The notes beneath the pieces were generated by a model. That model saw only the letters and a list, made by a program, of their open reading frames with translations. It was not told the origin of the DNA and searched no databases. A DNA stretch of 64,000 nt from a virus (Duplodnaviria; Caudoviricetes), in IMG/VR virus record IMGVR_UViG_3300030012_002336, positions 9,950 through 73,949 of that record; one strand, written 5' to 3'. Shown piece after piece: positions 15,904 to 64,000 of this stretch. Each line of letters opens with the position of its first letter. Position 1 is the stretch's first letter. Position numbers and translations under genes: made by a program.

Positions 15904-16050
15904 TTATAATACACCGTTAGGGCCCACAGATTTTGATATAGGTGAGTGATATTCACCACCACACATCATCATGTTAGATCCACCGCATTTATACATTTTC
16001 TTTTTTTTCTTGTCTTTCTTTTTTTTCTTTTTTTTATACATCATCATCAT
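15904..16050 (-). CDS. 48-aa poly-Lys protein (not in ORF track)
   Basis: MMMMYKKKKKKKDKKKKKMYKCGGSNMMMCGGEYHSPISKSVGPNGVL*; ATGA overlap; AAA/AAG codon periodicity. Confidence 0.7.
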   Translation of the reverse strand: MMMMYKKKKKKKDKKKKKMYKCGGSNMMMCGGEYHSPISKSVGPNGVL

Positions 16051-46700: not shown

Positions 46701-47439
46701 CACTATTAACAAAAAAATCATTAATATGACCTTTCATAGTACCTGGATTATTTGTCATGCCTATTCTCATATTATCAGTTAAGGCCCTAGCACCTTGAAA
46801 GTCAGATATAAAAGGTTCTCCATAAAACATATCTTTTATTGATCTTATACTTGAACCCATAGCAGGACCAAATATACCTTTAAATGCACCCCAACTTCTA
46901 GCCAGTTCCTCTTGATTAGTCATATTTTGATTATAATATCTTTCATTATCACCAAAAGGATTAAAACCTAATCTTGAAAATGCAGGAGTTGAATAATATC
47001 TATCTAAATTAGTTGCCTGTGTATTAAGTTTTAAAGAGTGTGTATAGTTAGGAGTTAAACTATCTTCAAAACCAACTGATCCATCAATTATCTGACGGTA
47101 TCTTGCTTCTCTTTGTTGTACATCAGTGCCTTGAAAATCACCAAGTGACTCAGTATATGGGTTAAAATTTGGCGTTACTTTCCCAGGATAAGGATTACTC
47201 ATACTATTATTAGGACCAAAGAATGGAACAAACTGAGTAAACTCTTTTGCTTCTTCTATTAGCATTTCAGTTGCTGGATCTATAGGTCCAACATTACCAA
47301 ATTCAAAAGCATCAGATGCCATTTTTTGAAATGTATCTATTGGAGGTAAATCAACTCTAGCGTCTTGAAAATTAACATCAGGCTGCTCAAATGAATCCCC
47401 TAAGAGATTGTTATCTGTTAAGTTTATTTTTTCTGACAT
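31762..47439 (-). CDS. Giant virion-packaged DNA-dependent RNA polymerase (crAss-like, double-psi beta-barrel) fused to other domains
   Basis: DxDxD motif GRDLDID (35635-35649), ETDG, VPAQ, MTDNAK; zincin HEAGH (40705-40719); N-terminal EGVQEVSQ helical/hydrophobic region. Confidence 0.8.
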   Translation of the reverse strand: MSEKINLTDNNLLGDSFEQPDVNFQDARVDLPPIDTFQKMASDAFEFGNVGPIDPATEMLIEEAKEFTQFVPFFGPNNSMSNPYPGKVTPNFNPYTESLGDFQGTDVQQREARYRQIIDGSVGFEDSLTPNYTHSLKLNTQATNLDRYYSTPAFSRLGFNPFGDNERYYNQNMTNQEELARSWGAFKGIFGPAMGSSIRSIKDMFYGEPFISDFQGARALTDNMRIGMTNNPGTMKGHINDFFVNSAYTFGIIGGIAAEELTLWGAAAVTAPFTGGGSLSTKAAGTARNIDRLRKIPSIAADTRRYTSQISNFSQTLNNVKNAKNFFQASKAGFAGAGRGLANFFAPETMRAFASLKSAASVGDNLSQLAKIQRTFGGFYRDLRSINLALAESKMEAGIEELRVQEATKKIEEEKLGRPLTPDEMLTTVEAGKRAGLKTLFNNFPLIYLSNKLLIGTAMRGFRRLTGDAIETGVDGARGSTIRTAAGRAFKPGTPGKPIVAVAAKKQGVKGFLKNIKAAGPGGIAKGLAGGALRFTLLGIPEGVQEVSQEAIADGISAYYEEMFSSMPYAEVKKAMGLTDNIWENANRMSIGKSPMDQLSTEVKNLLSSPQEYSKYAQKGIEKQWSPQGLKVFLSGFFMRGATAIPQSIVFNAIPDYVNTKVNKDYADIKKNTDKYRRAQADMDNSIYNDVVNFYHPQTMDATSQILADKLAFQYTTEGKVKKYFDTVHKMMFNAINANIKNRNHQVFIDQMESYKQLDDQEIVNIVDDKNADPVKIRKRLDEAIENAKVLKKEKLRLDNRLPNPYLYTQFEPGSDEYNAAYFNYQGWEFMRDMALFAGDSFKNYVKRKADILQSLTQVPVVTNLEASELDVLLSERSMAKEILFLKETLANTEVTPETKEDLDFKKAKLDLLEKIKPILFDPINVQALKSGLDVSDLPQGPVNKLKDLIAQYFQKIAFYRQGTVANANLSENIDKIIDFTTLDIQSKRYNDAINFFANPINAERFAQEMAIVHKAMYNKYTGENATIRRVNKTIITDAQRTFLNQLSKLGDIQGLSQVQPVPEQVEAFIKENKLPTEYFGFDKGVITEDMAEMAEIKKLENSYKELLAKTNTTKEEVTEEESTTVEEELTSLQSETDPYQQSLKDEEVTIPEEDTVNSEEITAAVVARDNFYSDNKSTQTLMKDIYALYANSDRPSLDYSDWKKKKLALGDGGFQILGARYDLFQKYKQSENYKKTGARDFDNWIVDPNNKLVVFDIIEKYETELRFVSTVEFNKKATKEDVPTESDNIEIKDTAYDGIFIKQTRISETGKQDRFIYAVVDASGNNIFGRIKDISPDDIGSYKTLDQAKLAAKRINEYSPINPFVIEDLFGETFQTGDRLVRKGDPKNVWIVRSTESTFNKNKNLYIVHSEDIGKPYSKKRKDFIKTKKDWTDQEWTIIGKTDRPISESIKKIPIDNGVKFYPFNPGFVKFGKFVDPNAETLSTTEAQLAFERVLSTTTQEKLNNAILTIDRNPQYEKYQETLKRAEKGEVKFPEFDKNNNFDKKNKPNNDLAFGMNEFEVTLVLDNQPIAKLRNLGLVTLLDNGKIINGSTINALQAEKLFITEGNPNAYKQIQSNYQTLIEINDLLRSKLGDKNTVDVPLSSVPINVQATAGSPGYQVNNKPAQNLLENLKYTKINNQIFIIDKYNTYSEGKITPTFDYYTTAEGNARSEIQRELVEYIKNNFNNGNSNTTLADVPIGRYSMAVKEPNGTITFFRLRPMKQEVSKLDEVFTEIKEMQQKIDADRNTDESVKDLQPIAEFNNKLQRDFYIEYDPGTIIGIEFNENGYIQVTYRNLIDESVGKKGRAKVMFNKEANKLLAEAKTMQEFLDQVNKGFKQVQDYFIKNGKNIKGYENYRPIQNFKLTLDNFVKNLDKDLTVDQLNNELNSLVTAEVVRNIRRGRGLNITLESTGIKSSREQAVAMKPSDNVPKNKVVDEGANQENKQTEDNITELTDNIAEKYAAAIDDLANMLDGQMYEYSEVDINFVNQVHQYLDNKQVNNNDSNEKFIRLLRETEIDDNIEMQDILLESYEDNMTEEERIQNKLDDITEQYTDLVKELKLEKVELIKSENPNIKAVTLHKKLDEAVLKDPRVIKLDTERIELERQLKRFDNLGDDVANKVLERGELLDGLQAVNREDFISEMETILPEFFTVEDLKVLKDRLVDNQETVAAFGLNMATVGARVEGGIIYLPEVTQFAYHEAGHGVWRLLLTDEQQQGYIKEEKSKYLKQLKADGKNLKDEITNWKLEDYARVRATDKQATDRLVEEFIWDNFQDYANKKKTFTGKIVIFFKKVLDFIRGLFRTKSPFDIQALYDKILSGGFKYADIVDNQFTRPETSAYAVGVNRLAFKNIRNGSKRLFIKRDDGTTIRKSVNTYFDPNMQNQLVANIARIYNDYIENITGPYNPLNILENAVADYIETYNPTVLQEELSPEDYINQEKQIKDVYASLLQTRPFSVRGDIINAVSTYLRGMDVIIERTSDQVIEPGVGTNNIKSIAEYEKSQDEIGGLKSFSQYMRNLIATTTYTSKDMFGRSVVQTVHFQTGYEGLMKATSDAFTEVDVLESLVRFSNDSEQTFAIVERVLDKIGLTRQDIMQDGFTIPKQIQNPLFYQDFINHFKNQTRVDYSYDQLDQETGALQIMSATKKDDANQTMERWNNAFAARYPELKNNAQFRSEAVGALKDLTKLMGRKSITDKVLEEKISTAAGSIQSEIFRTTGINFTPGFLRYAILSNIQSPNTNQRKFLRQFGRLETVTATDINAIIAGLNKTDANNQSIPVLFTKYTDAFLQGKNIEETSEKDPGSAGRFARLGRIDAAFNETVGASTHITPSGKRIYSQQLASVHMKLIRQLNDTNYLDNLKADPFYENELLVNSPDIRDMAENNELRISRVAGYKVGKFSRTDEGYYVMNNNLDVNRKPGVDASNFGGRDLIASVINGYFIDFVPQTGKLDLKEYREESDVGVRIARYATARIYPRILEANSTLDYINMPIVKTVEFKNGKSNITLETVDRVFDKIRAEAYEIQREYQERYQGGETFIPGDIQGYNDTENGRWRRFKKTREYFTLQKARLGIDKSFKAPYLNKVQQQGLEGLGTTVILRKSATAKKEGYPQGEKVLVKINEKNYSLDNLGAGSIDNFNYDEILEKLLGGEVKTSAVGLSKAFSFKRGNKTYYTDNATIRNFLKENSKDKYTVYYLDKLSEEQVSLFTESTDEFIEDDSIITGVEDLLVTKNPKTNELYTFNEALKETTFIQDVPATSLDQLKYQVRETLENKFTMFNDMIVNEDILKLVTTNISGNLNTSAGEPVAGTVIQDLNLVAGQQLHNLRQIFFNAYLNASTINKALLGNTNKSLADATVENKRNKQFAITGRDVAFETIAPEFGITHTMGKNSIAQVIFEDRKFKGMEETDGLIFATMKGAKYLNYGVGTSKAKLELINRIEQGEIINVSEILGSEGVNGLLSLGGQVQSEKFAYGDGKIYDKMSIMFLSDQIVGDPSTNFTTPSITNPEFFAIHENLKAIEANQEVVALATPASASKAEKSKVLSFEDISTLSETLSPKDLTNSITYLDANFMYQQQKQVAGKNTISNLKQMKIIVSSEQDNSADINVFGESMTLGKLRGIYNKVEGEKAKSSLLSKMNLIFTLDEAIVALEEARDLGKMTPDLQTFKDYAISSLEASQANNQMVELFKNSPDLNNSLTSTKFEQLFLTFFNSTFNERVPGFNTTLITNALGARVKRVKLIEDGIPVAWEVVRGYELKPSDQREALTLTRTGQPLNLKREDNITKEYLDQVLDKPLEVGDLFIDGLRGSVVKLNKDGSKSDLRYHEMIVAPQRSYMSQIKDDEVIPDEVGDLYTATVPAQDAHSAAYGKIVDFLPAWMASSGMISQSYMKRSGRDLDIDQVYNHEKDVYIKGGKIIEYGDGVPVDPNRSTKGVNNKSEDTLYEEYLNFVEREVQRSGSIYNLALRKYKRKNPGALEEEFKLLYEEDEVEVMWTEWLRENEDQTAPGWIAKESKLRFAKAEDFTYNKKEDEFGPKYIKVDISQEEILGALHQLNKPKSKEEYIDYKNKFKIEPYEAANNNILLDTKIALQSNPRMEAPSEYSSVGVANEPTSIDPLTDLLTNLESQVKSFANRKRIFDSSTDTDFLNDILRIYDSFHDGAKNIGSIVPQNLNFHIFSEYGLDLRDGSQFGKLVIDGQDYNEFTNPYILDPKNQNELIRRAFMGSAEITGMTDNAKYNIAYFLGLNKQALSTVANGVALGMPIRIPVMMVNHPTIKDVYRMYSSKIRNNEPANISKIIEKKIEAMTTDKPFLLENAATLRMSTEVLTEQLNAWEYVGGVKTLSKTFTGEVEVGSEAYEKLEEAELKVLQQFLTLERIKLATNKFIALPNFIDGIGSSTLDLERSLKSLDDLDINKSDSDFKNSSVPVDFRKFFGQINNIGGVKTQPYLTTLYRMASMINKVTPSVFISKTKPFEQITDIVLSHYKGAARSVESRGEIKKSIISYLTAKSFIHRLKTRGDGKRLVTLDNGIIYPEASENTPLIIMDVMRRLMKNNPDSYFLYDFLKPITYDNPNNKQMIDRIVANTWKTVPDAMMVEIGRDIANIYTKDEQNYQDMNHLLNYLLVKDGFTFARDSFINVMPPVMLKDIISAVSPAHSLLKSETLDDTRYREVFGATLNEITNQVVKSILLSHKNSFNLKVSRAGNARLALKEFKDESSLNYNIAAEDSRYKKDISLEEGLASGQIKAISTENKLYANAKKGHIIRIGTEGTPYEITDIIRLTKKQKRVKNFSSKFSILTGYTKEYYDAMSNTDSRLKGYLTLVKKTTEEVAEKQPAAVQGGAVQFDSGLGETYVNLFAKLGPAQDRKLKGRLIRKYEAQKKKQYGKQLSVEAFKKRLSLNKKQLKGKGFEVVNLTINNKDYDLIKFPLVRKIKTGSGKETTFITEVLTSVTVPKILDRGADQQTLMYNLKSETDGRVSEILGVNAIYTETESLGVDSATDIGDVFTSKRPAFSLLMENRKDRLENDIPMQEFMETDPTSLVEGLAEEDTNQLGQLGDAISATEQGFKNERGADVKPKEVKTTEEQGQLDIFKDFDFTAEELEEAQEELEIDLTGLKEDALEIPGEQNEDVKFLTEEYDKLTESEKQNIAVAENLGGLGVRSAEDLIALYQDPKQLYDTKEEFMEDIKKCKGK

Positions 47440-51142: not shown

Positions 51143-54100
51143 TTAACGTCTTGTTCTTTTTAAAAAGTCATTAAGTGCCATACCACTTTTAGCAAGTCTT
51201 AACTCTCTACCTCTTCTAGATATATTATCATAACCACTATTTTTAACAGCATCTGCATCAGTGTTTGTACTTTGATTATTAAAGGTTTTATTCCACTCAA
51301 TAAAATTAGGAAGCTGCTCTTCAGGTATACCTTTTAGTATTGCATCATGATACCAATCTAGGTATTGACTTTTTGAATCTCCAGGACTTATATAGTTAGG
51401 ATCTTTATTAAACTCCTTTGGATTTACAATATCAATGAATCCCCCTGTGCCAGGCATAACATTAAAGTTAGGATACAAAGTGTTCATATTATATGTATTC
51501 GCTGCATTAGTATACATATTTTGCATTTGCTTTGTAATCTCTGCATTAGCTTTTCTTAATGAGTTGTCATAGTTTTGTTCTGTTAATACAGTATTATCAT
51601 ATAACTTTTTTAATTCAGTATTATTTAATAACTGTGTTTTATACTTAATTTCTGCATTCTTTGCATCTACTGTATTAGCTATAGTTATATTATCATTCTG
51701 CACTCTATTCATTACATCAGCTATTTGTGCTGCTGCTTTACCCTGAGCTTTTGCTTGTACAGCTGCCGCTCTTTGTGGCCCGGAAAAAGCAGACGCAGTA
51801 TCTGCAGCAATAACAGCTTGTTCACCTATTGCAGCTATTTCTCTTTCTGGATCTTTGAATACAGGATCAAGTAAATTTTCATTATACTTGGGTGCCCATG
51901 GATAATACTTTTTAAGACTCATTTTAGCATCTAAAGCATTAGCCAAACCCATCTTATCTTGTAACCAAAACTCGGGATCTGGAGGTGTTGTAACATCAAT
52001 ATCTGGCACATCTATTTCTTTCAAACCTCCTTGACATATACATCCCTCTCCTGTTTCTGGATTATAAGGAATAAATGTACCACCTTGCTCATCACATTGG
52101 GCTTTTATCTCTGCAGCGTTAGCACAGTCAGTAGTTTCTGTTATAGCATTTTCTATATTAAAAAGAAAATCATTTCCCATATATGAACTCATTTTAGAAG
52201 CATTAGCATCTGCATCTAACTGATTAGTATCAATATTTTGATTTGTATTTATATCAAAATTTTGACCAGGCATTTTACTTAATATAGCACCAGAATTAAT
52301 TGCAGCCATCATATGAGCTCCTTCTTCTTCATTAAATGCCGGAATAGGATTACCATCTACATCAACTAAACCAAGTTTTTGATACTCTTGATTGTAATAC
52401 CAGTTTTTACCTACACGTTCTCCTTTTCTCCAAACGTTACCTCTATATTTTTTACATCTTTTATTTCTAATATCATCTTCTGTACATGTATCATCCTTAG
52501 TCCATTTAAATTGACTATCCCAATTTGGATCATCTCTATATAAAGGATTATCTTTTGCTTTTTGATTTAATGCATCAGCAACTCTATTATGATGAGCGTA
52601 CATTCTGTGAAACTCTTCTTCTGATAAAGGTTCAAAGTTTGGATTTTTCTTTAAAAATTTTGAATCTCCACTTTTCTGATCTTCTATATATGTTTTATAT
52701 ATTTGATATCTTTTATTTCTATAAGCTTCTTGTTCAGGACTCATATACCAATCACTCCAACTATCATAACCATCATAATTTTTTTGTATAGTTTGAATAT
52801 CTCTCTCAGATACATTTACAGATTTTCTCTCTACTTCATTATAATTTTGTGCATATGCTTTTAAAATTAACTCATAAGTATCAGGATCAGTATTTTTTAA
52901 TCTTGCAAGCTCAATCTTATTACTAATAATTGTTCCATCTCCTAACTCTATTGGAAATGCATTTTTATTTAAAGATTCTGTTAACTCTTCTCCTGTTGCT
53001 GCTTTTGGAAGCTCACCTCCTTCACTCATTGTCTCTAATGTATCTCCTGCAGCAAAAGAAGATCCCACATAATAAGGACTTGTTTTATCTGTATAGTTAA
53101 GATTACTTTCATCTGTAAAATTTAAATCATCATCTTTCTCTGCATAAGGATTTTGATTTTGTTGCAACTTTTGAAAAAGCTCCATTATTTCTTTATTATT
53201 ATCCTTTACATAGTTTTCTTGATTATCTAAAGCATTATCTAATTCATCTTCTTCTCTAGCAATAGTATTTTCTATTCTATTCTCATAAACTTGTTTATAT
53301 GCCTCTAAATAAGCAGCATTTGGTTCAGAAGGTGGAGGATTACCATCTTTAATATGTTTAACCCAATACTCTACTGTAGCTTCATCAATATTTTCTTGTT
53401 GAGATTGAGAATTAGTAAGGTTTGTTTGTATTATTAAATCTCTTTCTTGTTTAGCTAACTTTGCTAACTCTGCATTTAATCTTTTTAACTCTTCATTAAA
53501 ATCAGTTAACTTTGATATTTGTTGTTGATTAGTAACAGTTTTATCATTATTATTAGTTTGTATAATAGAAGCTTCTAAAGGTGTAGTGCTTGTTAAAGGT
53601 TGACCATCATAAGTTTGAGTAGGAACATTAAAGTTAGGAATATTTAATCCTGCAGTACTCATATTATCCATTGGGAAAAACATATCAGGCATATCATATT
53701 CACCTCTAGTTTGATATTTATCTAACTCACCTCCCTCTTCTAAGTCAGCAAGTGGCATAGTATCCATATCAGGAGTTTGCATATCTGTTTCTAATTCCCT
53801 ATTATCTAACTTTATAGGATCATTAATAACTCTATTTTCTTCAGTTTTTTCTATTTGTCTTTGTATATTTTGAACTTGAGCTTTTAACTCCATAACCTTT
53901 TCTCTTACCTCTATAGGTAATTGCATAATAGCTTTTAACTCTGCTTGCTCTTTAGTTATGTTTTCTACTTTTTGACTAAATTCAATTGGATTAACTCCTT
54001 GTTTTTGCAAGTAAGGATATGATGCTAAAGGTACACCATCTTCAAACTCTTTCTTTGCTTCTTGTAAAAAAGCTAATTGAGATAAAGATTCTTTATTTTT

Positions 54101-54631
54101 CTGCAGCATGTACTCTGCTGTATCTTTTGATATTTTATCTGAAGCTTCATCATCTAAAATAGATATATATTTATTTAATTCATATTTCTTTGATACATCT
54201 GCAGGAGTCATTTTCTTTTTAGACTCTATACCCATTTCAGCTAGCTCACTTTGATTAAGCTTCATAGATGCAGTGTCTGAATAAATAAATGACTGAGGTG
54301 GCAAATTCAAAGGTGTACCTCCCTCTGAATGTCTTTTTCCAGATATATTATATAATTCAAAATCACCATCATTATTCATATCAGTAAGAGCAGTCTCACC
54401 TCTTTCTGCTTCAAGATTAGCTTCATCTCTAGGCACAGGACCTAAAGTATTACTTACTTTACCAAACGGCTCTGCAGACATGTTATACATGTCATCATAA
54501 ATTTGATTATCTGTAATTAATCCATAGCTAGAATCTTGTTGACCAGTTGATCCACCATACATAGATTTCTTGACAACTTTTCCATCAACTAAAGCAAAAC
54601 CTTCTGGTAATTTATTAATTTTTACTTTCAT
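51143..54631 (-). CDS. Large virion cargo protein with EAExGE / GxxHxEGG domain and GG linkers
   Basis: NLEAERGE...GKRHSEGGTPL...FIYSD; coiled coils. Confidence 0.6.
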   Translation of the reverse strand: MKVKINKLPEGFALVDGKVVKKSMYGGSTGQQDSSYGLITDNQIYDDMYNMSAEPFGKVSNTLGPVPRDEANLEAERGETALTDMNNDGDFELYNISGKRHSEGGTPLNLPPQSFIYSDTASMKLNQSELAEMGIESKKKMTPADVSKKYELNKYISILDDEASDKISKDTAEYMLQKNKESLSQLAFLQEAKKEFEDGVPLASYPYLQKQGVNPIEFSQKVENITKEQAELKAIMQLPIEVREKVMELKAQVQNIQRQIEKTEENRVINDPIKLDNRELETDMQTPDMDTMPLADLEEGGELDKYQTRGEYDMPDMFFPMDNMSTAGLNIPNFNVPTQTYDGQPLTSTTPLEASIIQTNNNDKTVTNQQQISKLTDFNEELKRLNAELAKLAKQERDLIIQTNLTNSQSQQENIDEATVEYWVKHIKDGNPPPSEPNAAYLEAYKQVYENRIENTIAREEDELDNALDNQENYVKDNNKEIMELFQKLQQNQNPYAEKDDDLNFTDESNLNYTDKTSPYYVGSSFAAGDTLETMSEGGELPKAATGEELTESLNKNAFPIELGDGTIISNKIELARLKNTDPDTYELILKAYAQNYNEVERKSVNVSERDIQTIQKNYDGYDSWSDWYMSPEQEAYRNKRYQIYKTYIEDQKSGDSKFLKKNPNFEPLSEEEFHRMYAHHNRVADALNQKAKDNPLYRDDPNWDSQFKWTKDDTCTEDDIRNKRCKKYRGNVWRKGERVGKNWYYNQEYQKLGLVDVDGNPIPAFNEEEGAHMMAAINSGAILSKMPGQNFDINTNQNIDTNQLDADANASKMSSYMGNDFLFNIENAITETTDCANAAEIKAQCDEQGGTFIPYNPETGEGCICQGGLKEIDVPDIDVTTPPDPEFWLQDKMGLANALDAKMSLKKYYPWAPKYNENLLDPVFKDPEREIAAIGEQAVIAADTASAFSGPQRAAAVQAKAQGKAAAQIADVMNRVQNDNITIANTVDAKNAEIKYKTQLLNNTELKKLYDNTVLTEQNYDNSLRKANAEITKQMQNMYTNAANTYNMNTLYPNFNVMPGTGGFIDIVNPKEFNKDPNYISPGDSKSQYLDWYHDAILKGIPEEQLPNFIEWNKTFNNQSTNTDADAVKNSGYDNISRRGRELRLAKSGMALNDFLKRTRR

Positions 54632-54633
54632 AA

Positions 54634-57609
54634 TTATAGTATTTCTATATCTGCTCCTGCAGCAATTAGTGCTTTATAAGTATTAATATCTATTTCAGCC
54701 TCACCACCAGTGCCATAAAATGATCCTCCATACAACGCTTGACTTTGTGGCTCATACTCTTCATCATCTCTTTGTGACTGAGGTGTATATTCTTCATCAT
54801 CTCTCTGAGATTGTGGTGTATACTCTTCATCATTTCTTTGAGATTGTGGAATATATTCTTCTCTTGAAACAGATTGTGGAGTATATTCTTGTGAATCGCT
54901 AGTACTTGAGGTAGTATTTTGTTCTACTACAGGTATACTATTTTGTTCACTGTTTGGAGTAGTAACAACCTCTTCATCTTCTTCTACTACTTGCCTAGAT
55001 GGAGCGGGTGGTCTACTTTGTATAGAACCAGGTGCTGACTGCCTAATAATTGTTTCTTGATTATTACCACCAACAGAATCTACAGTTCTTGGTACAATTG
55101 TAGCAGCTGCTTCATTATTATCCCTCTTAGCATTAAGAACAATTTCATTAAGCATACCGCCTTGAATAGGAGCCATTGTATCTGTTAATAAAACTTCATC
55201 TAACATATAAGGAGTAGATGGTGATCTAACTGGAGCTTGTTGATTTAAATATACTATATCTTCTTCTTCTTCTGGATCTTCTTCTATTTCTTTAAGTTTA
55301 AGATTTTTAAAATATTCATCAGCTTCTGCTTGCTCTTCTTTTCTAATGTTATAAGCCTCTCTAGAAACCATTCTATTAAAGTCTCTTTCATTTTCAGCAT
55401 CTATAGCTTCTTGATCTAAATTAGGATATCTTGATTCATTTACTCTATCAGATAAAGCTAATAAAGATTCTATTACATCTTCATCATAATTTCCATATAC
55501 AGTATCAAATGGTCCTCGCCCAGGTAAATCATCTTTATATCCAAATCCTGAACCTTTATCTATATCATAATCAATAGCTGCTGGCCCTCTATAGCCTTCT
55601 AAAAATCTATAATATCCTTCAGCTACATCAGGATCTAAATTTCCACTAGCTAACTGCCCTCTCATACGTCTTGCCATTTCATCATCTACAATAATTCTAC
55701 CAAAGCCTTCATTAGGTGCTTTTAACCAATCAGGTAATTCAGAAATAGCTGGATTATAACCAACAGTTCTATTCTCATCCTTATAAGCCATAGTTTCATT
55801 ATATTGATCAGAATAATTATTTCCATCTGATGTAGTATTAGTTCCACTAAACTGATTAAGAACTTGATTTTGCTCATCTTCAGTTAAATCATCAAACCCT
55901 TCATATCTATTTGCAATAAAATCTGAGCTAGATGAATCTGATGTAACTTCCTCTTCCTCTCCATTACCTTCCTGAAGATAAGGTAACTCAAACCCATATC
56001 TACCCAATCTACTAATAACTTTATCATCAGGTCTAAATATACCTGTATTAACATCATAGTCACCTTTTGAACCAGAAAGATCAGCATCAGTAGGAGCAAA
56101 TACATTATCTGCTAAATATCCTAAACCTAGTTGTTGTCTTCTTTTTCTTTCTGCTCTATCACGGAAATAATTAGTAATAGGCTTTGCTAAAGTAACTGCA
56201 GTTGTTCCAATCTTATCTAATGTATTTATAACCTTTTGTCCAAAACTACCAGATCTATTTGCTTTTCTAATAGCTCTTTTATCTTCTCTAGTCATTCTAT
56301 CAAAATCCGCATCATCATCAGGACTTACAGTATATACTGCATCACCATCTCTTTCTAATTCTACATCATCTGTTGTTCCATCAAACATACTATCTTCTGG
56401 ATCTTCTTCTTGTGGATCATAATATTCTATATTATCTGAATCATCTTCTTCAACATCCATATCAAAATCAGGATTAAAATTGTACATACCTTCTTCATAG
56501 GTACCTTCTGCTGTATCAAATTCATAATTATCCATATCTGATGCATCTTCTGTTAAGTCAACATCTTCAAATGGATCAGCATCTGCATCAAAATCATCTC
56601 CATCTTGTGCTTTATGTAATATACCGCCATATCTTTCTTCAATTAACTCATCATCATCATAGCTAGAAAAATCTGAGTCTATTCCTGCTTCCTCAGCTAC
56701 AATATCAAATCTAGGAGCACCATAAAAAGCAGTCATATCATAAGGTGCTGGCGGTTCTAATTCAAAATCTGGAAATGAAGTTGGATAATAGATTATAGGA
56801 TCCATTGGAATACTTTCTAAAGATATTGGTTCTGTAATACCTTTAAGGGAGATAGGAAACTCCTGCATCTCTCCATCAACTTCTTTAAAATAAGAAATAG
56901 GATTTCCTTCTTCATCATAATTTATATATTGAGCATCTGGATATTCAAACATCTCTAATCTATCACCCAACTTCATTGTTTGTCTTTTCTTTTTAAAATT
57001 ACGTTTTCCTGTTTTTCTATATTCTTCTAAATCTACTTTTTCTTTTTGATATAATTCAGGATACATTTCAGCTCTGTAATCTAACTCTCTTTGTATTAGC
57101 CACTCATCATACTCATCTGGAGTTTGCATAAATTTGGTAGGATCATTAGGGAATTGTTTTTGTAACTCTGCATTAATTAAAAACTTACCTGTTGGATCAA
57201 TTGGATAAGGAGGTTTAGCTTGTTTAGATAAATCATTATCTCTCCAGTATTGAATAGATTCACCTACTGCACCTATAAAATCTAAAAAAGGATTATCACC
57301 AACACTAGATAATAAATAAGGATTACTCATCCTAAAATTTTGTCCCATTATTTGATTAGGTGCATTAAATTGTCTTTCTTCCTCTCTTAGTGTATTATTA
57401 AATTTTACAGAATTAGGATCTAAATTAGAGTCATCTTGATTAAATTGTATTGCTCTAATATCAAAATCTTCAGAATATTTACTATATGCTTCTTCTGCTT
57501 TTGCAAGATCACTTTCACAAAGTCCACCACCTTTTTGTGTACACCATTGATCAAAATCTAATTTGACTTCTCCTCTATCTTGATATGTTTCTAAATAATT
57601 TTTATACAT
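54634..57609 (-). CDS. Highly acidic large protein with GG linkers (putative internal virion protein)
   Basis: 991 aa, D/E-rich; ERYGGILHKAQDG, GRYGFELPYLQEG. Confidence 0.6.
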   Translation of the reverse strand: MYKNYLETYQDRGEVKLDFDQWCTQKGGGLCESDLAKAEEAYSKYSEDFDIRAIQFNQDDSNLDPNSVKFNNTLREEERQFNAPNQIMGQNFRMSNPYLLSSVGDNPFLDFIGAVGESIQYWRDNDLSKQAKPPYPIDPTGKFLINAELQKQFPNDPTKFMQTPDEYDEWLIQRELDYRAEMYPELYQKEKVDLEEYRKTGKRNFKKKRQTMKLGDRLEMFEYPDAQYINYDEEGNPISYFKEVDGEMQEFPISLKGITEPISLESIPMDPIIYYPTSFPDFELEPPAPYDMTAFYGAPRFDIVAEEAGIDSDFSSYDDDELIEERYGGILHKAQDGDDFDADADPFEDVDLTEDASDMDNYEFDTAEGTYEEGMYNFNPDFDMDVEEDDSDNIEYYDPQEEDPEDSMFDGTTDDVELERDGDAVYTVSPDDDADFDRMTREDKRAIRKANRSGSFGQKVINTLDKIGTTAVTLAKPITNYFRDRAERKRRQQLGLGYLADNVFAPTDADLSGSKGDYDVNTGIFRPDDKVISRLGRYGFELPYLQEGNGEEEEVTSDSSSSDFIANRYEGFDDLTEDEQNQVLNQFSGTNTTSDGNNYSDQYNETMAYKDENRTVGYNPAISELPDWLKAPNEGFGRIIVDDEMARRMRGQLASGNLDPDVAEGYYRFLEGYRGPAAIDYDIDKGSGFGYKDDLPGRGPFDTVYGNYDEDVIESLLALSDRVNESRYPNLDQEAIDAENERDFNRMVSREAYNIRKEEQAEADEYFKNLKLKEIEEDPEEEEDIVYLNQQAPVRSPSTPYMLDEVLLTDTMAPIQGGMLNEIVLNAKRDNNEAAATIVPRTVDSVGGNNQETIIRQSAPGSIQSRPPAPSRQVVEEDEEVVTTPNSEQNSIPVVEQNTTSSTSDSQEYTPQSVSREEYIPQSQRNDEEYTPQSQRDDEEYTPQSQRDDEEYEPQSQALYGGSFYGTGGEAEIDINTYKALIAAGADIEIL
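54740..54892 (-). repeat. 33-bp coding tandem repeat (EEYxPQSQRDD, about 5 copies)
   Basis: EYTPQSVSREEYIPQSQRNDEEYTPQSQRDDEEYTPQSQRDDEEYEPQSQ. Confidence 0.85.
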
Positions 57610-57633
57610 GTTGAAATATGCAGTTTACTATAA

Positions 57634-57644
57634 TAATATACTAA
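57634..57644 (-). promoter_or_regulatory. Variant of the late promoter motif (TTAGTATATTA)
   Basis: 1 mismatch to TTTGTATATTA; intergenic, upstream of ATG 57609. Confidence 0.5.
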
Positions 57645-57665
57645 ATAATATTGACAATCACTAAA

Positions 57666-60600
57666 TTATATTCTTGCTAATGAATGTAAGTAACTTAATA
57701 CATTACCACCCGTCTTTTTAGTTGGTAAGTGATACATCTTATTTAATTTTTTAAAAATATGATTTGCTCTCTTTTCTTTTGGTCCTCCATCAAAAGAACC
57801 TTTTATATAATCTTCATAAAATTTTATTTGTTGGTTTAAATTTAAATTTAACTGCCCTCCCTTTTTATAGTTAACATCATCTAAATTATATTCAAAATTA
57901 AATCTAATATCTTTTAAATTTAATTTTTTATTAGGTTTATTAGCTAATCCTAATTTATATAATTCTTTTAAAACTGTAGGTGATATTTTTTCACCTTCTA
58001 AATTTTTCTTATAGTCTTTAAATAATCTACTATACCTTCTTATTGAACCCCCTTTTCTTCTGTAGGCATTTATATATTTTTGAACATCTTCTCTACCTTC
58101 TAATGTTTTTACTTTCTTTTCAAATTTATCATCATTACGCAAAATTAACATGTTTACATAATCCTTAGTCTCTTTAGGTAAATCATCAACCCAAGTCATA
58201 TCATCACTATAGATATCTACACCTGCATCTTTCTTTTTATTTAAAAACTCATTAAAGTTAGTAGAGCCCCAATTGTAAGCTGCTAATGTTTTAGCTAGTC
58301 TTACAGTTTGATCTTGATTACCTTTATTAATCCATGGTCTATTATATAAACTATTCATATACCACTTTTGAACAGCCATGGCATCTCTATAATCCATTAA
58401 ATCTATATCTTTATCTCCTGTAGCATTTATATAGTCTGTTAAAGTATCTGGCATTATCTGTGTTAAACCTTTAGCTCCTTTAGGAGAAACAGCTTCAGGT
58501 TTTAATGCAGACTCTGCCATAGCTTGTAATAATAATATATCTTTTCCAACTTCTGTTGAGTCATCTCTATCTATACCAACTGGTAAACCATCATCATCTC
58601 TGTCTTTAAATGTATCTTGTAATGTTATTGGTCCATAGGATTCACCTCCATCATCATACCTTGCACCACCAGATTGCTGATCTAACATAAAAGGAGAAGC
58701 AAGAGGAATAGCTGCAGGTAACTTATTTAATTGTTTACTTAAAAAATCTATGTTGCTTGGATCCTTTGACATAAACTGTGGTATCCTAGGCATATAAGGG
58801 GGATTTGCTGTAACACCCGGAACATCATCAATAGCTGTTAGATACTTATTAAGCAAGCTAGGTGTTATCTCATCATAAGTATTTTTAATAAATCCTCTTT
58901 GTAACATATCACCTCTTAATTCAGCTAAGTATGGTAGACCTTCTCTACTTGTTCCTATACGGTTAGTTCTACTTACTACTAATTGTGAAAGATCTTTAGG
59001 ATTAGGCTCCAACATTTTTGAAAAATAATTATATGATTTTTCTGTTCCTTGAGTCTTACCTAAGTTTCTTAACACATAATCTACTTGACGAGGACTCATG
59101 TCTTTTATATTGGAGGTCAGATTACTTAGAACATTATCCGGCTTACTTCCTGGACCTATTCTATAATTAGGATCAACTCTTAAACCTTTTTGTATAGCTC
59201 TATCTATATCTGTATTATATGCAAAAGATCTCCCCTTATATTCTGGATATATTTCATTTAAATCTTTTTTAAGTTTGTTAGCAAGTGTCTGTCTAATATT
59301 AGGATTATCAAAGTGTTTAGGATGTATTTTTCCAAGATTATAAGGTAAATATTGAGTAATTCCTGATTGAATAAAATGACCTATTTCATGGTCTGTAACA
59401 GGTATATTAGCTGTACTATTATAAGGTAAATTTTTATTTAAACGTACTCTTGGAAAACCTGCGTCTATTGCACCAATTTTATTATTTATAATGCTCTTTT
59501 TAAGCATTGATTTAGTAGCATCAGAAGGAGTAAAAAAAGTAAATTGTCCAAGATTATCAGTAATATTTACTATTCTCATTTGTGCTGCATCAGCTATCAT
59601 GTCATCTATTGTACTATTTACCAAAAGTTCATATTGATTTACTTTACCCGGTTCAGTAACAGGTCTTTTAGAAAATAATTTACCTGGACCTATAATTTCT
59701 TCATCAATTAAAGCCGTCATTCTTTTTCTAAATTCATCTGTTTGCATTCTGTTTTGAAGGTCAGTAATTCTTGAATTTGCTAGTTTTGAATAATTGTAAT
59801 TGTACCTTATAGATTCTTCTAACAGCGCACCTTGTTCTGCAGATGTTACTTTAAGAACGCCTGGAGAAGCAGATGGTGCTGGATTTGCATTTTTTAATAA
59901 AGGAGAAAATTTAACTTTACTAGCAACGTTTGCTACTTCAAGACCACCAAAAGTAATACCAGCTAAATCTAAAGCTACATTAGCTCCTGTACGTAATGAA
60001 GGATCCTCAGCAAAATCTTTAACATCTCCTGGTAAATTATATCCACCATATAAACCACCTGTTAAGTTTAATGCATTTCCTATTGTAACTCTACCTGCTG
60101 TACCTGGTATTGTTGTGGCTAATGCTGCAGGAGCAGCAATTCCAAGAGATGCTATAGTTGGTACTCCTATAGCTGAATATAATGGAGCATTAGCTACAAT
60201 CTCACCCCATTCCATTCCAAAAGGTGCACTTCCTGGCGCCTGTCCTGTTGCATCCATTGATGCTCTTGCAATAGGATTATTTTCATATTGACTTCTATTA
60301 TAATAAGGATTTAAAAAAGATCTTTCATAAGGTAAGCCAAAAAAATCTTTAGAAGTATTTCTATTACCAAAAACAGATACTTCATCTAACATTCCTAAAT
60401 TGTAAAGATCTCTATATTTCTGTGTTCCCGGCACAGCTGAAACAAGAGGTACACCGTCATCTGTATAACCTGTTATTGGATATTCTTTATTCCCTACTTC
60501 TACTTCACCTTGATCTTGATATGATGGTAGTTCTGTACCATATTTAGCAGTAGCTACATCTATATCATCTCCTATTTCATTTGCATCTGCTACAGAGTTA

Positions 60601-63600
60601 TTTATAAATCTAATATTACTATCTCTATCATTACCTGTGTTTTCTGGATCTGCTATACGGTATTGATCTTCTTCAGGAACTCTATATCTATATAGTAGTC
60701 TTTGTAATGATAATGGATATTTTTTACTAGTTGTTTTCATATCAGGATCATATGTTTGTAAATATTCATCCCAATTTTCCTTAGTCATTTGTTCTTTTCT
60801 ATAATCATATATACCTTTCTCAAGCATATCTAATCTTACAGCATTTAAATCCGCATAAGCTTCATTCGTTGTTTCTGGAGCTAAATGACCACCATAATCT
60901 CTTTGGCTATCTGCCATACCAGCAGACATTTCATCTATATACAAATTAGCATTATTTAAGTCACTAAGTATTTCATTATCTCTTTCTGATAAAAATTTAT
61001 CACGTCCTGTTACATGAGCTAATTCATGCGCATATGTACTAGTCCAATCATCCATTCCAGAATAGCTATCTGTTTCCACAGAACCATGTTTAACAGTAGA
61101 TTTTGATAAATAGTCATTAATATCTTTTGGCATCACTATAGCTGCCATAAGATTTTCAAATCTAGGATCATCAGGATCTTCACCAGCATCTATTAACATT
61201 TGCCTTTTATTTTCTTCAGACATTCTTCCTTGCTCTGTCTTATCATAATAAGGAGTTATTAAAGATAATGCATGAGGGCCTTGTAAATCTTGAAAAGCAT
61301 ATCCAAGTCTTCTTTGTTCACTAAGGGTCAATCCATCAAAATATGAGTCAAAAAAATCTTTTGGATCCTTTCCATCTGCAATCCATTGATCTTTTTTTGC
61401 TTCTATATTTTTTAATTGATCAATAGCATATTTTTGTCCTTCAGTTGCATCTAAAAAAGTAAAATTAGTTAGTCTAGGATATACAGCATTAAAAACAGTT
61501 TCAGCATTTACTTTTAAATCTTTAAAAGATTGTTTATCAGGATCTTCTTTTGAAGTATAACTACCAGTATCAATATCATAATCATATAATAGTGTACTAT
61601 AATTTTGTGGCCCTTTTGTTCTAGGTTGTGTAGCTGAATATTGTCCAAATTCAGTATCATCTGAAAAATCTCCTCTTATTCTTTGACTAATTAAAGACTC
61701 TGGATCATTTAATCCTGAATAATAATCAACCATACTTTCAACATAATTTATATCTGTATCTTGTAAAGGTGTTGGATTATTCATCATAAAATCAGAAGTT
61801 ATAGGATTTGGATAAACTCTTAATGGATTACGTAAACCTTCTGTATTAATTTCCACAGGATCCGTTAAAAAGTCTTCTTGTATTTTTTCATTTAATCCAT
61901 CTTGTGCTTTTGGTAAAGAACCTCCATCAACCTTTTTTAAATAATCACTTAATGCTTTACTACCATAGTAAACACCTTTTAAAAGTTTAGGGATACCACT
62001 TACAAAACCTATAGGAGCAGTTCCTCCCATAGGTGTAATATCACCATAATCTACACCTAGCATTAAATCACCATCTTCGTTTCTTACATAACCTGCAAGT
62101 TCTTCTATTTTAGATCTTTGGTCACCACTAAGTTCCATGTTTGCATGAAATGCAGAAAAGTCTACTTCATCTATTTCACCATCTGAATCTAATCCATTTT
62201 GTGCTTTAGGTAATGCACCACCAAACTTTGCTACATTTGTAGGCATAGATGAAGTATCAGTAAATATATTTAAATTATTTAATAAATCTTCATCCTCATA
62301 CATATCTAGCATTAACTGACTTTTATGAAACTTTGTAGGATTGTTACGTAAATGATCTATATGATCTTGTGTAAATTTAAAATTAGGATCATTAAAATCA
62401 TACATGCCGGCATCATATAACTCATATCTAATTGTATCAATATCAGATTTAACATTATATGGATCATAATCATGTCGTTGTACTTCATTCAATTCTTGAT
62501 TTGGATCTAAATTAAATTTAAACTTTTTTGCTAATTTAATTTCTTCTGGTGACATGTCTATATTAGGATTTATAGTCACTTTATTTGGTGAATAATTTCC
62601 ATAATAACCTAGGTTAAAGAGAGCGTCATCATCATATACATCTTTCTTTGGATTTTTACCAATGTTTACATTTAAAGCATGAGATATTTCATTAACAATA
62701 CTGCCTGGTAATATATCATGAACATAACCATCTCTTTCTTTAATGTAATCCATTTGAGCATCATTAAAAGAGGCTAAGTTTGCATAAGGTTTATATAAAG
62801 TTCCTGTATCATAATAATCTAAAGTAAACTCACTTAAAGGATCATCTAACATATTTTGAAACTCTGAAGGATCTTGTTCTTCAATTAATAAACTAGAAAG
62901 CTGTTCTTTTTTAGCATCAATTACTGCTTGTTGTTTTTCTGGATCTCCAGGATAAAGATTTTCAAGTCTAGTTTTTAATAAAGGAGAATCTAAATATTCA
63001 GTAAAATAATTTATAGCTTTTGCTTTTGCAGCATCTCCTCTTTCTGTTCGTTCACCTTCTCTATAATCTATCAATCTTCTTCTACCTTTATCTATAAAGT
63101 ACTTGTTTCTCTCTGGTTCAAGTCCTTTATATTCATAATAAAATCTACTAGCTTCATTATCTAACCTATTTTTAAAATCTTTTTTTGATTCACCTTTTCT
63201 TTTATTTTCTTTATAACTTATATTTTCTTTTTGTTGTTCAATCCAATTTCTAAATTTAACATCCATATCTTCATCATCCCAATCTCTATTTTCAATGATT
63301 TCATCTAAATCAGGATAAATTTCTCTTATGTCTGTATTTAAATCAAAAAAACTAGTTTCAGTTCCATCCTGTGCTTCTTCAGAAGATTCTGTTTCAACAG
63401 GTTCTACTTCAACTGGTTCTACATCAACAGTTTCTTCAGGAGGATCAACTGCTGCCATTGGTTCTGATGTAACAGTTTCTGTCTTTTCAGTTTCAATTGC
63501 TGCATCAACCGGATCCTCTGAAGGTCCTACATATATTTCTTTATCTGGATCATTTTTACCTAATGATCCAGTTACACTTTGATCTTCTCTTAATCCTGTA

Positions 63601-64000
63601 TAAGTTGCTGTATCTTTAGCTAAACTAACACCTCCTGCTGTCCATCCTGGAGGTCCAGGAAAAGCTGAACCAGTATTTAAAGCCGTGTTTTCTAAATGTT
63701 TTCTTAATCCATCTTGATCACCTGTAATAGCAGCATAACCAGCTCTACCTGCTGAAATTAATGCGTTTGGTACATCAAGAAAAATTCCATAACCTGGGGC
63801 TAAACCTCCTGTTGTTAAAGCTGTTTGAAGTGCATCTAGCTTTTGAGTTGTAGTTAAATTTTTGCCAGTTATATCATCTACTTGTTCATCAGTAAGATTC
63901 AACTTTTTTTGTGTTTCATAATTCTGCATTATATCAAAACCTACTTGTGCTTTAGGTAGTTCAGATCCATACTTTGCTTGTTCAAAATCATTTTCTTGAT
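57666..64000 (-). CDS. Giant modular virion protein (5' truncated): three zincin-like modules plus an SLT lytic transglycosylase
   Basis: Frame is open to the window end (QENDFEQAKYGSELPKAQVGFDIM...). NEISH, HELAH, HEIGH; SLT motifs AES...GAKGLTQIMPDT...AAYNWG...ETKDYV. Confidence 0.8.
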   Translation of the reverse strand, partial: QENDFEQAKYGSELPKAQVGFDIMQNYETQKKLNLTDEQVDDITGKNLTTTQKLDALQTALTTGGLAPGYGIFLDVPNALISAGRAGYAAITGDQDGLRKHLENTALNTGSAFPGPPGWTAGGVSLAKDTATYTGLREDQSVTGSLGKNDPDKEIYVGPSEDPVDAAIETEKTETVTSEPMAAVDPPEETVDVEPVEVEPVETESSEEAQDGTETSFFDLNTDIREIYPDLDEIIENRDWDDEDMDVKFRNWIEQQKENISYKENKRKGESKKDFKNRLDNEASRFYYEYKGLEPERNKYFIDKGRRRLIDYREGERTERGDAAKAKAINYFTEYLDSPLLKTRLENLYPGDPEKQQAVIDAKKEQLSSLLIEEQDPSEFQNMLDDPLSEFTLDYYDTGTLYKPYANLASFNDAQMDYIKERDGYVHDILPGSIVNEISHALNVNIGKNPKKDVYDDDALFNLGYYGNYSPNKVTINPNIDMSPEEIKLAKKFKFNLDPNQELNEVQRHDYDPYNVKSDIDTIRYELYDAGMYDFNDPNFKFTQDHIDHLRNNPTKFHKSQLMLDMYEDEDLLNNLNIFTDTSSMPTNVAKFGGALPKAQNGLDSDGEIDEVDFSAFHANMELSGDQRSKIEELAGYVRNEDGDLMLGVDYGDITPMGGTAPIGFVSGIPKLLKGVYYGSKALSDYLKKVDGGSLPKAQDGLNEKIQEDFLTDPVEINTEGLRNPLRVYPNPITSDFMMNNPTPLQDTDINYVESMVDYYSGLNDPESLISQRIRGDFSDDTEFGQYSATQPRTKGPQNYSTLLYDYDIDTGSYTSKEDPDKQSFKDLKVNAETVFNAVYPRLTNFTFLDATEGQKYAIDQLKNIEAKKDQWIADGKDPKDFFDSYFDGLTLSEQRRLGYAFQDLQGPHALSLITPYYDKTEQGRMSEENKRQMLIDAGEDPDDPRFENLMAAIVMPKDINDYLSKSTVKHGSVETDSYSGMDDWTSTYAHELAHVTGRDKFLSERDNEILSDLNNANLYIDEMSAGMADSQRDYGGHLAPETTNEAYADLNAVRLDMLEKGIYDYRKEQMTKENWDEYLQTYDPDMKTTSKKYPLSLQRLLYRYRVPEEDQYRIADPENTGNDRDSNIRFINNSVADANEIGDDIDVATAKYGTELPSYQDQGEVEVGNKEYPITGYTDDGVPLVSAVPGTQKYRDLYNLGMLDEVSVFGNRNTSKDFFGLPYERSFLNPYYNRSQYENNPIARASMDATGQAPGSAPFGMEWGEIVANAPLYSAIGVPTIASLGIAAPAALATTIPGTAGRVTIGNALNLTGGLYGGYNLPGDVKDFAEDPSLRTGANVALDLAGITFGGLEVANVASKVKFSPLLKNANPAPSASPGVLKVTSAEQGALLEESIRYNYNYSKLANSRITDLQNRMQTDEFRKRMTALIDEEIIGPGKLFSKRPVTEPGKVNQYELLVNSTIDDMIADAAQMRIVNITDNLGQFTFFTPSDATKSMLKKSIINNKIGAIDAGFPRVRLNKNLPYNSTANIPVTDHEIGHFIQSGITQYLPYNLGKIHPKHFDNPNIRQTLANKLKKDLNEIYPEYKGRSFAYNTDIDRAIQKGLRVDPNYRIGPGSKPDNVLSNLTSNIKDMSPRQVDYVLRNLGKTQGTEKSYNYFSKMLEPNPKDLSQLVVSRTNRIGTSREGLPYLAELRGDMLQRGFIKNTYDEITPSLLNKYLTAIDDVPGVTANPPYMPRIPQFMSKDPSNIDFLSKQLNKLPAAIPLASPFMLDQQSGGARYDDGGESYGPITLQDTFKDRDDDGLPVGIDRDDSTEVGKDILLLQAMAESALKPEAVSPKGAKGLTQIMPDTLTDYINATGDKDIDLMDYRDAMAVQKWYMNSLYNRPWINKGNQDQTVRLAKTLAAYNWGSTNFNEFLNKKKDAGVDIYSDDMTWVDDLPKETKDYVNMLILRNDDKFEKKVKTLEGREDVQKYINAYRRKGGSIRRYSRLFKDYKKNLEGEKISPTVLKELYKLGLANKPNKKLNLKDIRFNFEYNLDDVNYKKGGQLNLNLNQQIKFYEDYIKGSFDGGPKEKRANHIFKKLNKMYHLPTKKTGGNVLSYLHSLARI

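Follow-up and report, generated by a model that had tools for sequence, protein, structure and literature searches.

The last 13 kb of a 64,000-nt stretch of virus DNA (the window; bases 9950-73949 of the 73,949-bp contig IMGVR_UViG_3300030012_002336) hold three consecutive minus-strand open reading frames (ORFs), P0001, P0002 and P0003, whose products carry eight full copies of a peptide of about 13 residues, [K/R][Y/F]GGxLPKAQxG. We tentatively propose that this peptide is a short linear motif at the starts of protein modules, which may act as a non-covalent recognition tag for loading and ordering cargo in the virion; we hold this reading to be possible rather than probable. Crass-like and other podophages carry megadaltons of cargo protein, and a near-invariant peptide of 10-13 residues at module starts offers an experimental handle on its selection, ordering and release and on the proposed processing of polyvalent proteins. 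It also gives a practical rule for dividing unannotatable giant ORFs into modules, and shows where recombination swaps effector modules between phages.

The copies were located in the translations and by a six-frame regular-expression (regex) scan, which detected the full motif nowhere else in the window; their positions are collected with those of other features in Table 1. A regex fitted after the copies had been seen counts 8 in the 4,263 amino acids (aa) of P0001-P0003, against a mean of 0.003 in 2,000 shuffles, none of which reached 8, and 0 in the 1214-, 5225-, 1925- and 994-aa proteins (9,358 aa). The exact word LPKAQ occurs three times (0.003 expected). The back-translated DNA pattern, with up to three mismatches allowed, matches the window five times, always on the minus strand within P0001-P0003 (0.04 expected; of 100 shuffles, none reached 5). 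When the regex is loosened by dropping the closing Gly, one match is added, at 20763-20783, which we take as chance. The recurring bipartite linker that the first-pass annotation (a model's reading of the letters alone) had described in these three ORFs is thereby confirmed, as is its absence from the replication genes and from the 1214-, 5225- and 1925-aa proteins. The list of sites given there requires some adjustment. All eight full sites stand, the first of them lying 5′ of the ATG at 63929, in a frame that the contig end truncates, and EEAQDG is a remnant joint; ALYGGSFYGTGG, SRRGRELRLAKSG and SMYGG, also counted as sites, belong to other conserved terminal elements, and the bare half-sites [K/R]xGG are only weakly enriched (6 against 1.9 expected, with 21 of 2,000 shuffles reaching 6).

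P0001 consists of modules separated by the motif, including two HExxH modules and an SLT lytic transglycosylase domain (PF01464, aa 1816-1925, E 9e-12 in Pfam), and ends in a conserved C-terminal tail. Its frame is open 5′ at the contig end; the contig has no terminal overlap, and no start codon was obtained by joining its ends. Because the counterpart of P0001 in an 83%-identical relative is a 2191-aa ORF, some 80-90 N-terminal residues are missing here. The contig stops inside P0001 (63929-64000), and the upstream head, tail and packaging genes of the 114-kb relative are missing from the 74-kb record. A Gly-rich joint, QQSGGARYDDGG, stands ahead of the SLT domain, and in the relative L066 a strict motif copy lies 13 aa ahead of a LysM-SLT module. 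P0002, which matches no Pfam or PHROG family, begins with MYKNYLETYQDRGEV, resembling the second half of the motif. P0003 starts with the leader MKVKINKLPEGF, followed by a conserved N-domain and, beyond a variable middle, a conserved C-module; it matches no Pfam family at E<=0.01. A tblastn search of 50,697 phage records returned zero matches for P0003, and the SLT match was the only one that P0001 gave in the phage collection.

The motif had been described as falling between recognizable domains, with the modules so delimited expected to be exchanged among relatives, and the comparisons bear out both points. Residues 196-617 of P0001 match aa 329-758 of a 2572-aa protein of locus L003 at 74% identity, the two proteins being otherwise unrelated, and the edges of the shared block are EEAQDG on one side and AKFGGALPKAQNG (the right edge) on the other. 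EEAQDG is kept in the close relative L001, and the module downstream of it, 74-76% identical to L003, is a different one in L001; modules thus switch at this joint. The first 115 residues of P0001 recur within the P0003 homologue of L002, directly after that protein's own motif variant. In P0003 itself the N-domain (to aa ~299) and the C-module (aa ~831-1085) are kept in dozens of loci while the middle, which begins at the motif, is replaced. A module of P0002 (aa ~459-550) that ends at motif copy 6 is common to proteins of L002, L003, L059, L075, L107 and L118. When homology-block ends were clustered over 114 proteins, 181 of the 1,492 were located no more than 15 aa from a motif, where 65 would be expected; this 2.8-fold enrichment is partly due to the shared motif itself extending the alignments. 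Successive copies are a median of 325 aa apart (quartiles 230-585), a module-sized spacing. The position of copy 3 is kept in the homologues P0004, P0008 and P0009, upstream of a zincin-like module, and orthologues of copy 4 occur in L001, P0004-P0006 and P0008-P0010; among homologues of that module (module IV) the letters of the motif drift (for example SLPKAQDG, SLIKAQNG and DLPLAQNG).

The motif lies in predicted disorder. In an AlphaFold2 (AF2) model of P0003 aa 1-330, made from a 27-sequence alignment, aa 59-270 have a predicted confidence (pLDDT) above 90, and aa 274-330, which hold the motif at 297-310, fall below 50. By eye, a motif variant follows the N-domain in most rows of that alignment, and a relaxed regex finds one there in 46 of 120 database relatives of P0003, against 2.4 in shuffles. 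In 13 of 149 copies whose frame starts inside the locus, the motif stands within 40 aa of the first Met, after short basic leaders (MKKYKITSIPQL- and MLKKVRIKR- are examples); GG is missing from these N-terminal copies, which leaves LPKAQxG as the core of the motif. No copy lies within 30 aa of a stop codon (0 of 147). The P0003 family starts with M(A)K[V/I][K/R]I-N-K-LP…, and leader plus [L/V/I]P is present in 113 of the 120 database relatives. Basic residues are not enriched downstream of the motif, and no hydrophobic or basic anchor following it was seen by eye in the printed copies.

In IMG/VR, the strict form GGxLPKAQxG was found in at least 119 stretches, in at least 114 of them in frame within long ORFs. 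The in-frame set comprises at least 141 copies in at least 116 ORFs, with up to 3 per ORF among the matches listed; 5 of the 119 listed stretches are out of frame, which suggests about one in-frame chance match. The flanks favour F, Y or K at position -3, K at -2 and Y, E, D or N at -1, the residue after Q is variable, and the median GC of the carrier loci is 0.32. A motif profile of 32 columns, built from 106 copies, detected 128 representative proteins at E<=0.001 (24 at <=1e-10) among 1.84 billion, a lower bound given that single copies cannot attain significance among so many proteins. The matched proteins are mostly 1000-3300 aa long and contain 2-5 matched stretches in all but 7, which have one. 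The synonymous codons used for the six conserved residue types in 121 copies do not depart from the background of the same ORFs; selection therefore acts on the peptide and not on the DNA, and a DNA- or RNA-level element or recombination signal is ruled out. We also scanned 596 Gb of prokaryote sequence, one genome per species, with the same strict pattern. At least 120 stretches matched, and among the matches listed nearly all are GC-rich, short or in the wrong frame, as chance predicts; the only plausible ones, in low-GC, long ORFs, are in L157, L161 (2 copies), L182, L212 and L221. These five loci look like phage contigs binned into metagenome-assembled genomes, and a cellular origin of the motif, or a host motif, was rejected.

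The motif carriers belong to a low-GC, marine, crass-like phage clade. In G001, the 98%-complete, 114-kb relative mentioned above, Pfam matches identify Crass_capsid (E 7e-33), CrAss_Ring_2 (E 5e-15) and CrAss_Ring_1 (E 2e-9), and the capsid and ring proteins lie together with an HU-type protein upstream of the carrier block. The portal family of G001 is ~23% identical to Crassvirales portals, 27% to that of phi17:2 and 33% to that of Lbo-JY46; the portal match (G001:C1:46250-49012) was reported with one TAG inside the matched stretch. Database relatives of these proteins come from Tara Oceans and other metagenomes. Clustering of ORFs gave a shared gene order across loci: two small 'virion structural proteins' (phrog_9863 and phrog_34036), a giant of 1600-2600 aa (a 'virion structural protein', phrog_37948/15100), the carriers, a homologue of the 1214-aa protein and a homologue of the 5225-aa protein; the order used for comparison is gp43-gp44-gp45-gp46-gp47 of crAss001. 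Given the crass-like genome and a position between muzzle-like and RNA-polymerase-like genes, the three ORFs occupy the place of the crAss001 cargo genes gp45 and gp46.

Among 41 carriers, Pfam identified SLT in 3, LysM in 3, DUF5872 in 2, and ART-PolyVal (E 3e-12), SET, NlpC/P60, PG_binding_1 and Peptidase_M91 in 1 each; PHROG matches were 'virion structural protein' (5), 'lytic tail protein' (3) and 'internal virion protein with endolysin domain' (1). As judged from such family matches, the carriers resemble ejected, polyvalent-type proteins. Synteny, together with the SLT, LysM, ART-PolyVal and 'virion structural protein' matches, leads us to conclude that P0001-P0003 are probably packaged in the particle and injected.

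The cargo proteins of crassviruses offer the nearest precedent. According to the main text of the crAss001 study by Bayfield et al. (2023; PMC10172136), the tail-barrel rings are the docking site for short segments of cargo protein gp45 (residues 214-245), the muzzle for an unassigned 14-residue segment and the portal for a domain. The genes for this cargo (gp45, 'C1', and gp46, 'C2') follow the ring and muzzle genes and precede the RNA-polymerase-associated giants, as the carriers do here, and both sets of proteins are presumed to be packaged and ejected. By eye, gp45 also resembles the P0003 family in opening with a short basic leader, then Pro and a GG-x-x-GQQ stretch. In contrast, gp44-gp50 of crAss001 contain no copy of the motif, and P0001-P0003 are far larger and mosaic. 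Homology of P0003 to gp45 was not shown (BLASTP not significant; hhalign E 0.14), none of 27 P0003-family N-terminal regions matches Pfam crAss_CARG1 (PF25725) at E<=1, and the one match between P0003 and the crAss001 cargo is a language-model feature match (ESM-Atlas) of 0.91.

As we envisage a recognition tag, the motif would mark the start of each module, either in a disordered linker after a GG hinge or after a basic N-terminal leader, and one conserved component of the particle or of the assembly machinery would read it non-covalently. Candidate readers are the portal, the tail-barrel ring proteins, the muzzle, the inner capsid wall and the P0003 N-domain. Varied and interchangeable effector modules could thus be loaded, kept in register and released one after another through the tail. 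Cleavage of the chain at the tag or close by might be coupled to this, and would not be required. Several observations favour this proposal. The core is kept at the N-termini of separate proteins and is never C-terminal, other hinge-plus-peptide elements are present in the same proteins, and cargo segments of crAss001 dock on rings, muzzle and portal. Furthermore, a near-invariant disordered peptide persists while portals of the same clade are 21-95% identical and homologues of the 1214-aa protein a median of 33%; persistence where portals fall to 21% calls for a conserved reader. We infer both that a partner reading the motif exists and that it is a virion component.

Several points weigh against the proposal. 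No cultured member of the clade was found, and the motif was not found in cultured relatives, namely in crAss001 (30-79 kb), the Cellulophaga phages phi17:2 (5-50 kb) and phi14:2 (51-76 kb) and the Flavobacterium phage FpV4 (15-64 kb); the phi14:2 interval, which includes the cargo region, gave 0 matches to the DNA pattern at <=3 mismatches. The docking precedent of crAss001 must therefore involve other sequences. Small basic proteins encoded beside a holin-type gene also carry the motif in L080 and L105. Seven of the 265 core copies in the representative set are 30 aa or less from a protein end, where gene fragments are indistinguishable from true termini. Finally, docking leaves the enrichment of HExxH in the motif proteins unexplained, which the first of the alternatives below accommodates.

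According to that alternative, the main rival, which we regard as rather unlikely, the motif is a polyprotein processing code. The giants would be cut at it into separate effectors, by the embedded zincin-like HExxH modules or by an unrecognised phage protease, and the copies near N-termini would serve as propeptide sites. Carrier-cluster proteins (173,533 aa) contain 49 HExxH strings where composition predicts 1.1 (~45-fold), and the other ORFs of the carrier loci contain 3 where 2.4 are predicted; the independent representative set holds 61 against 2.1 expected, with at least one in 46 of 128 proteins. Many are followed after 40-60 residues by an element (P)xE..A(R/D), and the module of one relative matches Peptidase_M91 (E 8.6e-5) and SprT-like (E 1.5e-3) without reaching the curated cut-off of either. 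Module IV of P0001 has five homologues, 48-77% identical over the aligned module. The distance from HExxH to the following motif is 160-181 aa in P0001 and all five, and the motif stands on both sides of the module in P0001 and four of the five (three if the loose LGSGGLVQYQTEG of P0011 is left out). One chain can also combine domains with differing destinations, SLT, LysM and NlpC/P60 as against ART-PolyVal and SET, and mixed destinations within a chain are used as an argument for processing in the main text of Iyer et al. (2017; PMC5512222). The placement of the motif at module joints and after N-terminal leaders fits a processing site as well. On the other hand, the near-invariance of the motif is odd for an enzyme and its site when the HExxH modules are so diverse. 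Relative to any GG bond, conservation is mostly one-sided, and no fixed residue follows Q, a pattern that would be unusual for a protease site; separately encoded proteins retain an N-terminal tag that a pure separator would not need. The Gly-directed cleavage suggested in the first-pass annotation is weakened by the LPKAQxG core and by the N-terminal copies that lack GG.

The HExxH modules stand as candidates for a co-occurring protease in cis, and no maturation protease emerged from the late ORFs of G001: the scans, which covered late rather than early genes (10 ORFs by PHROGs, 25 by Pfam), contained no protease family, and no genome-wide search aimed at prohead or cysteine proteases was made. 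Pfam reported no MPTase-PolyVal family for P0001-P0003 or the 41 carriers. The zincin fold was not confirmed: phmmer with module IV against the PDB gave nothing meaningful, and the AF2 model of module IV is poor (mean pLDDT 40.6). A degenerate motif-like string, NGNLTYAQAGG, occurs in the 'tail protein' gp042 of phi17:2 (L244 35154-37388), between two HExxH modules of the same type as those of P0001.

A narrower form of the same idea, which we consider unlikely, makes the motif the cognate self-cleavage code of the embedded zincin-like modules. Self-processing polyproteins would be loaded into the particle and cut at the LPKAQxG joints on maturation or after ejection, yielding a changing set of periplasmic and cytoplasmic effectors. 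Were this true, phage polyvalent or cargo proteins would have their first defined processing code, and eukaryotic viral polyproteins a counterpart in bacterial viruses. In general terms, the main text of Iyer et al. (2017) proposes that polyvalent proteins process themselves through embedded metallopeptidases. The proteins described there resemble those studied here in being giant and multi-domain, in their late or virion context, in combining cell-wall enzymes with peptidase-like modules and in rapid domain shuffling. Several unrelated effector domains likewise share one polypeptide here (SLT and two HExxH modules in P0001; LysM, SLT, ART-PolyVal, SET, NlpC/P60 and PG_binding_1 in relatives). 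Of the specific polyvalent signatures, ART-PolyVal was found in 1 of 41 carriers and LPD26 at E 0.3 only. The main text of that paper, as distinct from its supplementary alignments, contains neither 'linker' nor 'glycine' and describes no junction motif, and the main text of PMC10172136, as distinct from its supplement, mentions no such motif either. A string search of the literature for words of the LPKAQ type, covering text rather than logos or supplementary displays, returned no phage paper, and a keyword search on virion proteolysis in marine crass-like phages found nothing relevant. The junction or leader motif thus seems not to have been described before; the proteins themselves are of known kinds (crassvirus cargo and polyvalent).

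Targeting and cleavage need not exclude one another. In T4 (gp21) and phiKZ (gp175), dedicated prohead proteases read Glu-directed sites of three residues; phiKZ internal proteins have multiple sites, and targeting and cleavage can be coupled. By analogy with such T4-type targeting sequences, the tag and processing readings can be combined. The comparison with T4 and phiKZ made in the first-pass annotation is reasonable as far as a short N-terminal tag on proteins bound for the particle interior is concerned, and the copies after basic leaders (and none at C-termini) agree with it. The present case differs in the length of the motif, 10-13 residues, and in that the scans of the late region of G001 found no prohead protease. 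Likeness to sortase LPXTG signals or to GG processing sites (leader peptides; polyproteins of adenovirus and African swine fever virus) is superficial, consisting of an L-P-x-x core and a GG before a conserved stretch. Unlike LPXTG, the motif is never C-terminal, and the probable host is a Gram-negative member of the Bacteroidota. Unlike GG sites, it persists without GG at N-termini, and no cysteine-protease family is among the Pfam matches of the 41 carriers and 25 G001 late ORFs, which were not part of a dedicated search.

It is distinctly improbable, in our view, that the motif is instead a host-envelope targeting peptide that binds a conserved component such as peptidoglycan or a periplasmic or outer-membrane protein, holding wall-degrading or channel-forming modules in place during entry and the small basic proteins during lysis. 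Wall-acting modules do adjoin the motif (SLT in 3, LysM in 3, PG_binding_1 in 1 and NlpC/P60 in 1 of the 41 carriers), endolysin and lytic-tail PHROGs occur among the carriers, and the motif-bearing small basic proteins of L080 and L105 lie beside a homologue of the window's GTA_holin_3TM-type gene. That the motif is invariant across diverse phages would also be explained by a conserved host molecule. One strict copy lies in a siphovirus tape-measure protein (L027), although this may be a chance in-frame match, about one being expected. Other modules are cytoplasmic-type effectors (ART-PolyVal, SET), and related phages of Bacteroidota hosts (Cellulophaga, Flavobacterium and Bacteroides) lack the motif. 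A passive joint, that is, a flexible, recombination-tolerant hinge kept because phages exchange at a shared linker sequence, would suit a Gly-rich motif in predicted disorder at which homology blocks break and modules are swapped, but is very improbable: background codon use shows that the DNA-level sequence is not kept, an invariant L-P-K-A-Q is more than a hinge requires, the motif is retained at orthologous positions over 52-85% identity and at the N-termini of separate proteins, and the enrichment of block ends is in part an artefact of alignment.

The only named phage found with the motif core is Leptolyngbya phage Lbo-JY46, in which a 484-aa protein (L246 37868-39322, XAI97384; locus GC 0.33) begins with MKIRIIGLPKAQIG; it has a single, N-terminal copy, and comparison did not show homology of this protein to the P0003 N-domain. 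In L027 (760-3003), the tape-measure protein of a lambda-like siphovirus tail module contains a strict copy, FRDGGILPKAQGG; minor tail proteins and a J-like fibre follow. This copy is either a chance in-frame match or a case of the motif crossing phage lineages.

Returning to the possible recognition tag, the P0003 N-domain is of interest as a candidate reader. It has 929 metagenome relatives at E<=1e-10, all unnamed or 'hypothetical', and its model matches no PDB fold at E<=0.001. Seven residues are invariant across 27 homologues (R68, E74, E76, E79, H101, S118 and D119), and the domain could be an enzyme or a docking domain. A predicted complex of the N-domain (aa 59-272) with P0001 aa 572-616 scored 0.02, with a mark of 0.32, which is neither support nor counter-evidence.

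P0001, P0002 and P0003 stand for three protein classes that differ in their conserved C-terminal tails. The P0001-class tail reads …YDKLNR…PNYI…; the P0002-class tail, GG-E-x-E-x-D-…-LIAAGADIEIL, is helix-like and is preceded by ALYGGSFYGTGG; and the P0003-class tail, …KG-x-E-x-K-K…PFY-x-GKMG, includes SRRGRELRLAKSG. SMYGG is part of a conserved N-terminal element, GG-x-TG(D/Q)Q-x-x-YGL. Among 7,619 ORFs examined, 13 small, mostly basic ones near a holin-type gene end in GG-x(1-6)-G-(P/S/A)-N-x-(V/I/L)-L-stop (for example …GPNGVL), and some of the small basic proteins of L080 and L105 also carry the motif or KMYGG repeats. The GG that precedes both …LIAAGADIEIL and …GPNGVL at C-termini would fit a hinge ahead of a ligand peptide.

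Table 1. Coordinates of the motif copies and associated features (positions are those of the window unless a locus is named).
Feature	Position	Strand	Remarks
P0001	57666-63998	minus	class-A cargo-type giant; 2110 aa present, N-terminus cut by contig end; from translation
Motif copy 1, AKYGSELPKAQVG	63939-63977	minus	P0001 aa 8-20, upstream of ATG 63929
Remnant joint EEAQDG	63363-63380	minus	P0001 aa 207-212; kept in close relative L001
Motif copy 2, AKFGGALPKAQNG	62193-62231	minus	P0001 aa 590-602; 0 mismatches to strict DNA pattern
Motif copy 3, VDGGSLPKAQDG	61896-61931	minus	P0001 aa 690-701; regex and DNA pattern
P0001 module IV, zincin-like	60549-61895	minus	aa 702-1150; HELAH 61014-61028, NEAYAD 60849-60866
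Motif copy 4, AKYGTELPSYQDQG	60507-60548	minus	P0001 aa 1151-1164
Second HExxH of P0001, HEIGH	59376-59390	minus	aa 1537-1541, module V
Gly-rich joint QQSGGARYDDGG	58644-58679	minus	ahead of SLT domain, P0001
SLT lytic transglycosylase domain of P0001	58224-58553	minus	Pfam
P0002	54634-57609	minus	class-B cargo-type protein, 991 aa; from translation
Motif copy 5, ERYGGILHKAQDG	56599-56637	minus	P0002 aa 325-337; 1 mismatch to DNA pattern
Motif copy 6, GRYGFELPYLQEG	55966-56004	minus	P0002 aa 536-548
P0002 C-terminal tail, GG-EAEIDINTYKALIAAGADIEIL	54637-54708	minus	same kind of tail in about two dozen relatives
P0003	51143-54631	minus	class-C cargo-type protein, 1162 aa; from translation
P0003 N-domain	53816-54457		aa 59-272
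Motif copy 7, LEEGGELDKYQTRG	53702-53743	minus	P0003 aa 297-310, directly after N-domain
Motif copy 8, MSEGGELPKAATG	52991-53029	minus	P0003 aa 535-547; 2 mismatches to DNA pattern
5225-aa ORF	31762-47439	minus
ORF with GPNGVL-type tail	23001-23564	minus
994-aa protein	18186-21170	minus
357-aa protein	17113-18186	minus
ORF with GPNGVL-type tail	16047-16280	minus
ORF with GPNGVL-type tail	15904-16050	minus
GTA_holin_3TM protein	15486-15887	minus	133 aa, E 1.5e-5
Region of ORFs with GPNGVL-type tails, L080	5495-7087
Region of ORFs with GPNGVL-type tails, L105	8920-10494

The 5225-aa ORF had been labelled a virion RNA polymerase. Neither half of it matches a Pfam family and no clear catalytic signature was seen; the one DxDxD-type string is RDLDID near aa 3931. 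Gene order makes the polymerase a candidate identity.

Among the neighbouring genes, the 994-aa protein has a signal-peptide-like N-terminus and a C-terminal sorting domain of the type IX secretion system (Por_Secre_tail, E 6e-12). This system is specific to Bacteroidota, and the domain suggests that the phage protein is exported by a type IX system of the host and that the host belongs to the Bacteroidota. A homologue of 1151 aa with many Cys-containing repeats is found in L080. The 357-aa protein has a lipoprotein- or signal-like N-terminus, matches no Pfam family and is conserved in L080; the gene for the GTA_holin_3TM protein lies near it. Taken together, the 357-aa and holin-type genes resemble a lysis or envelope cluster, placed between the blocks for replication and for cargo.

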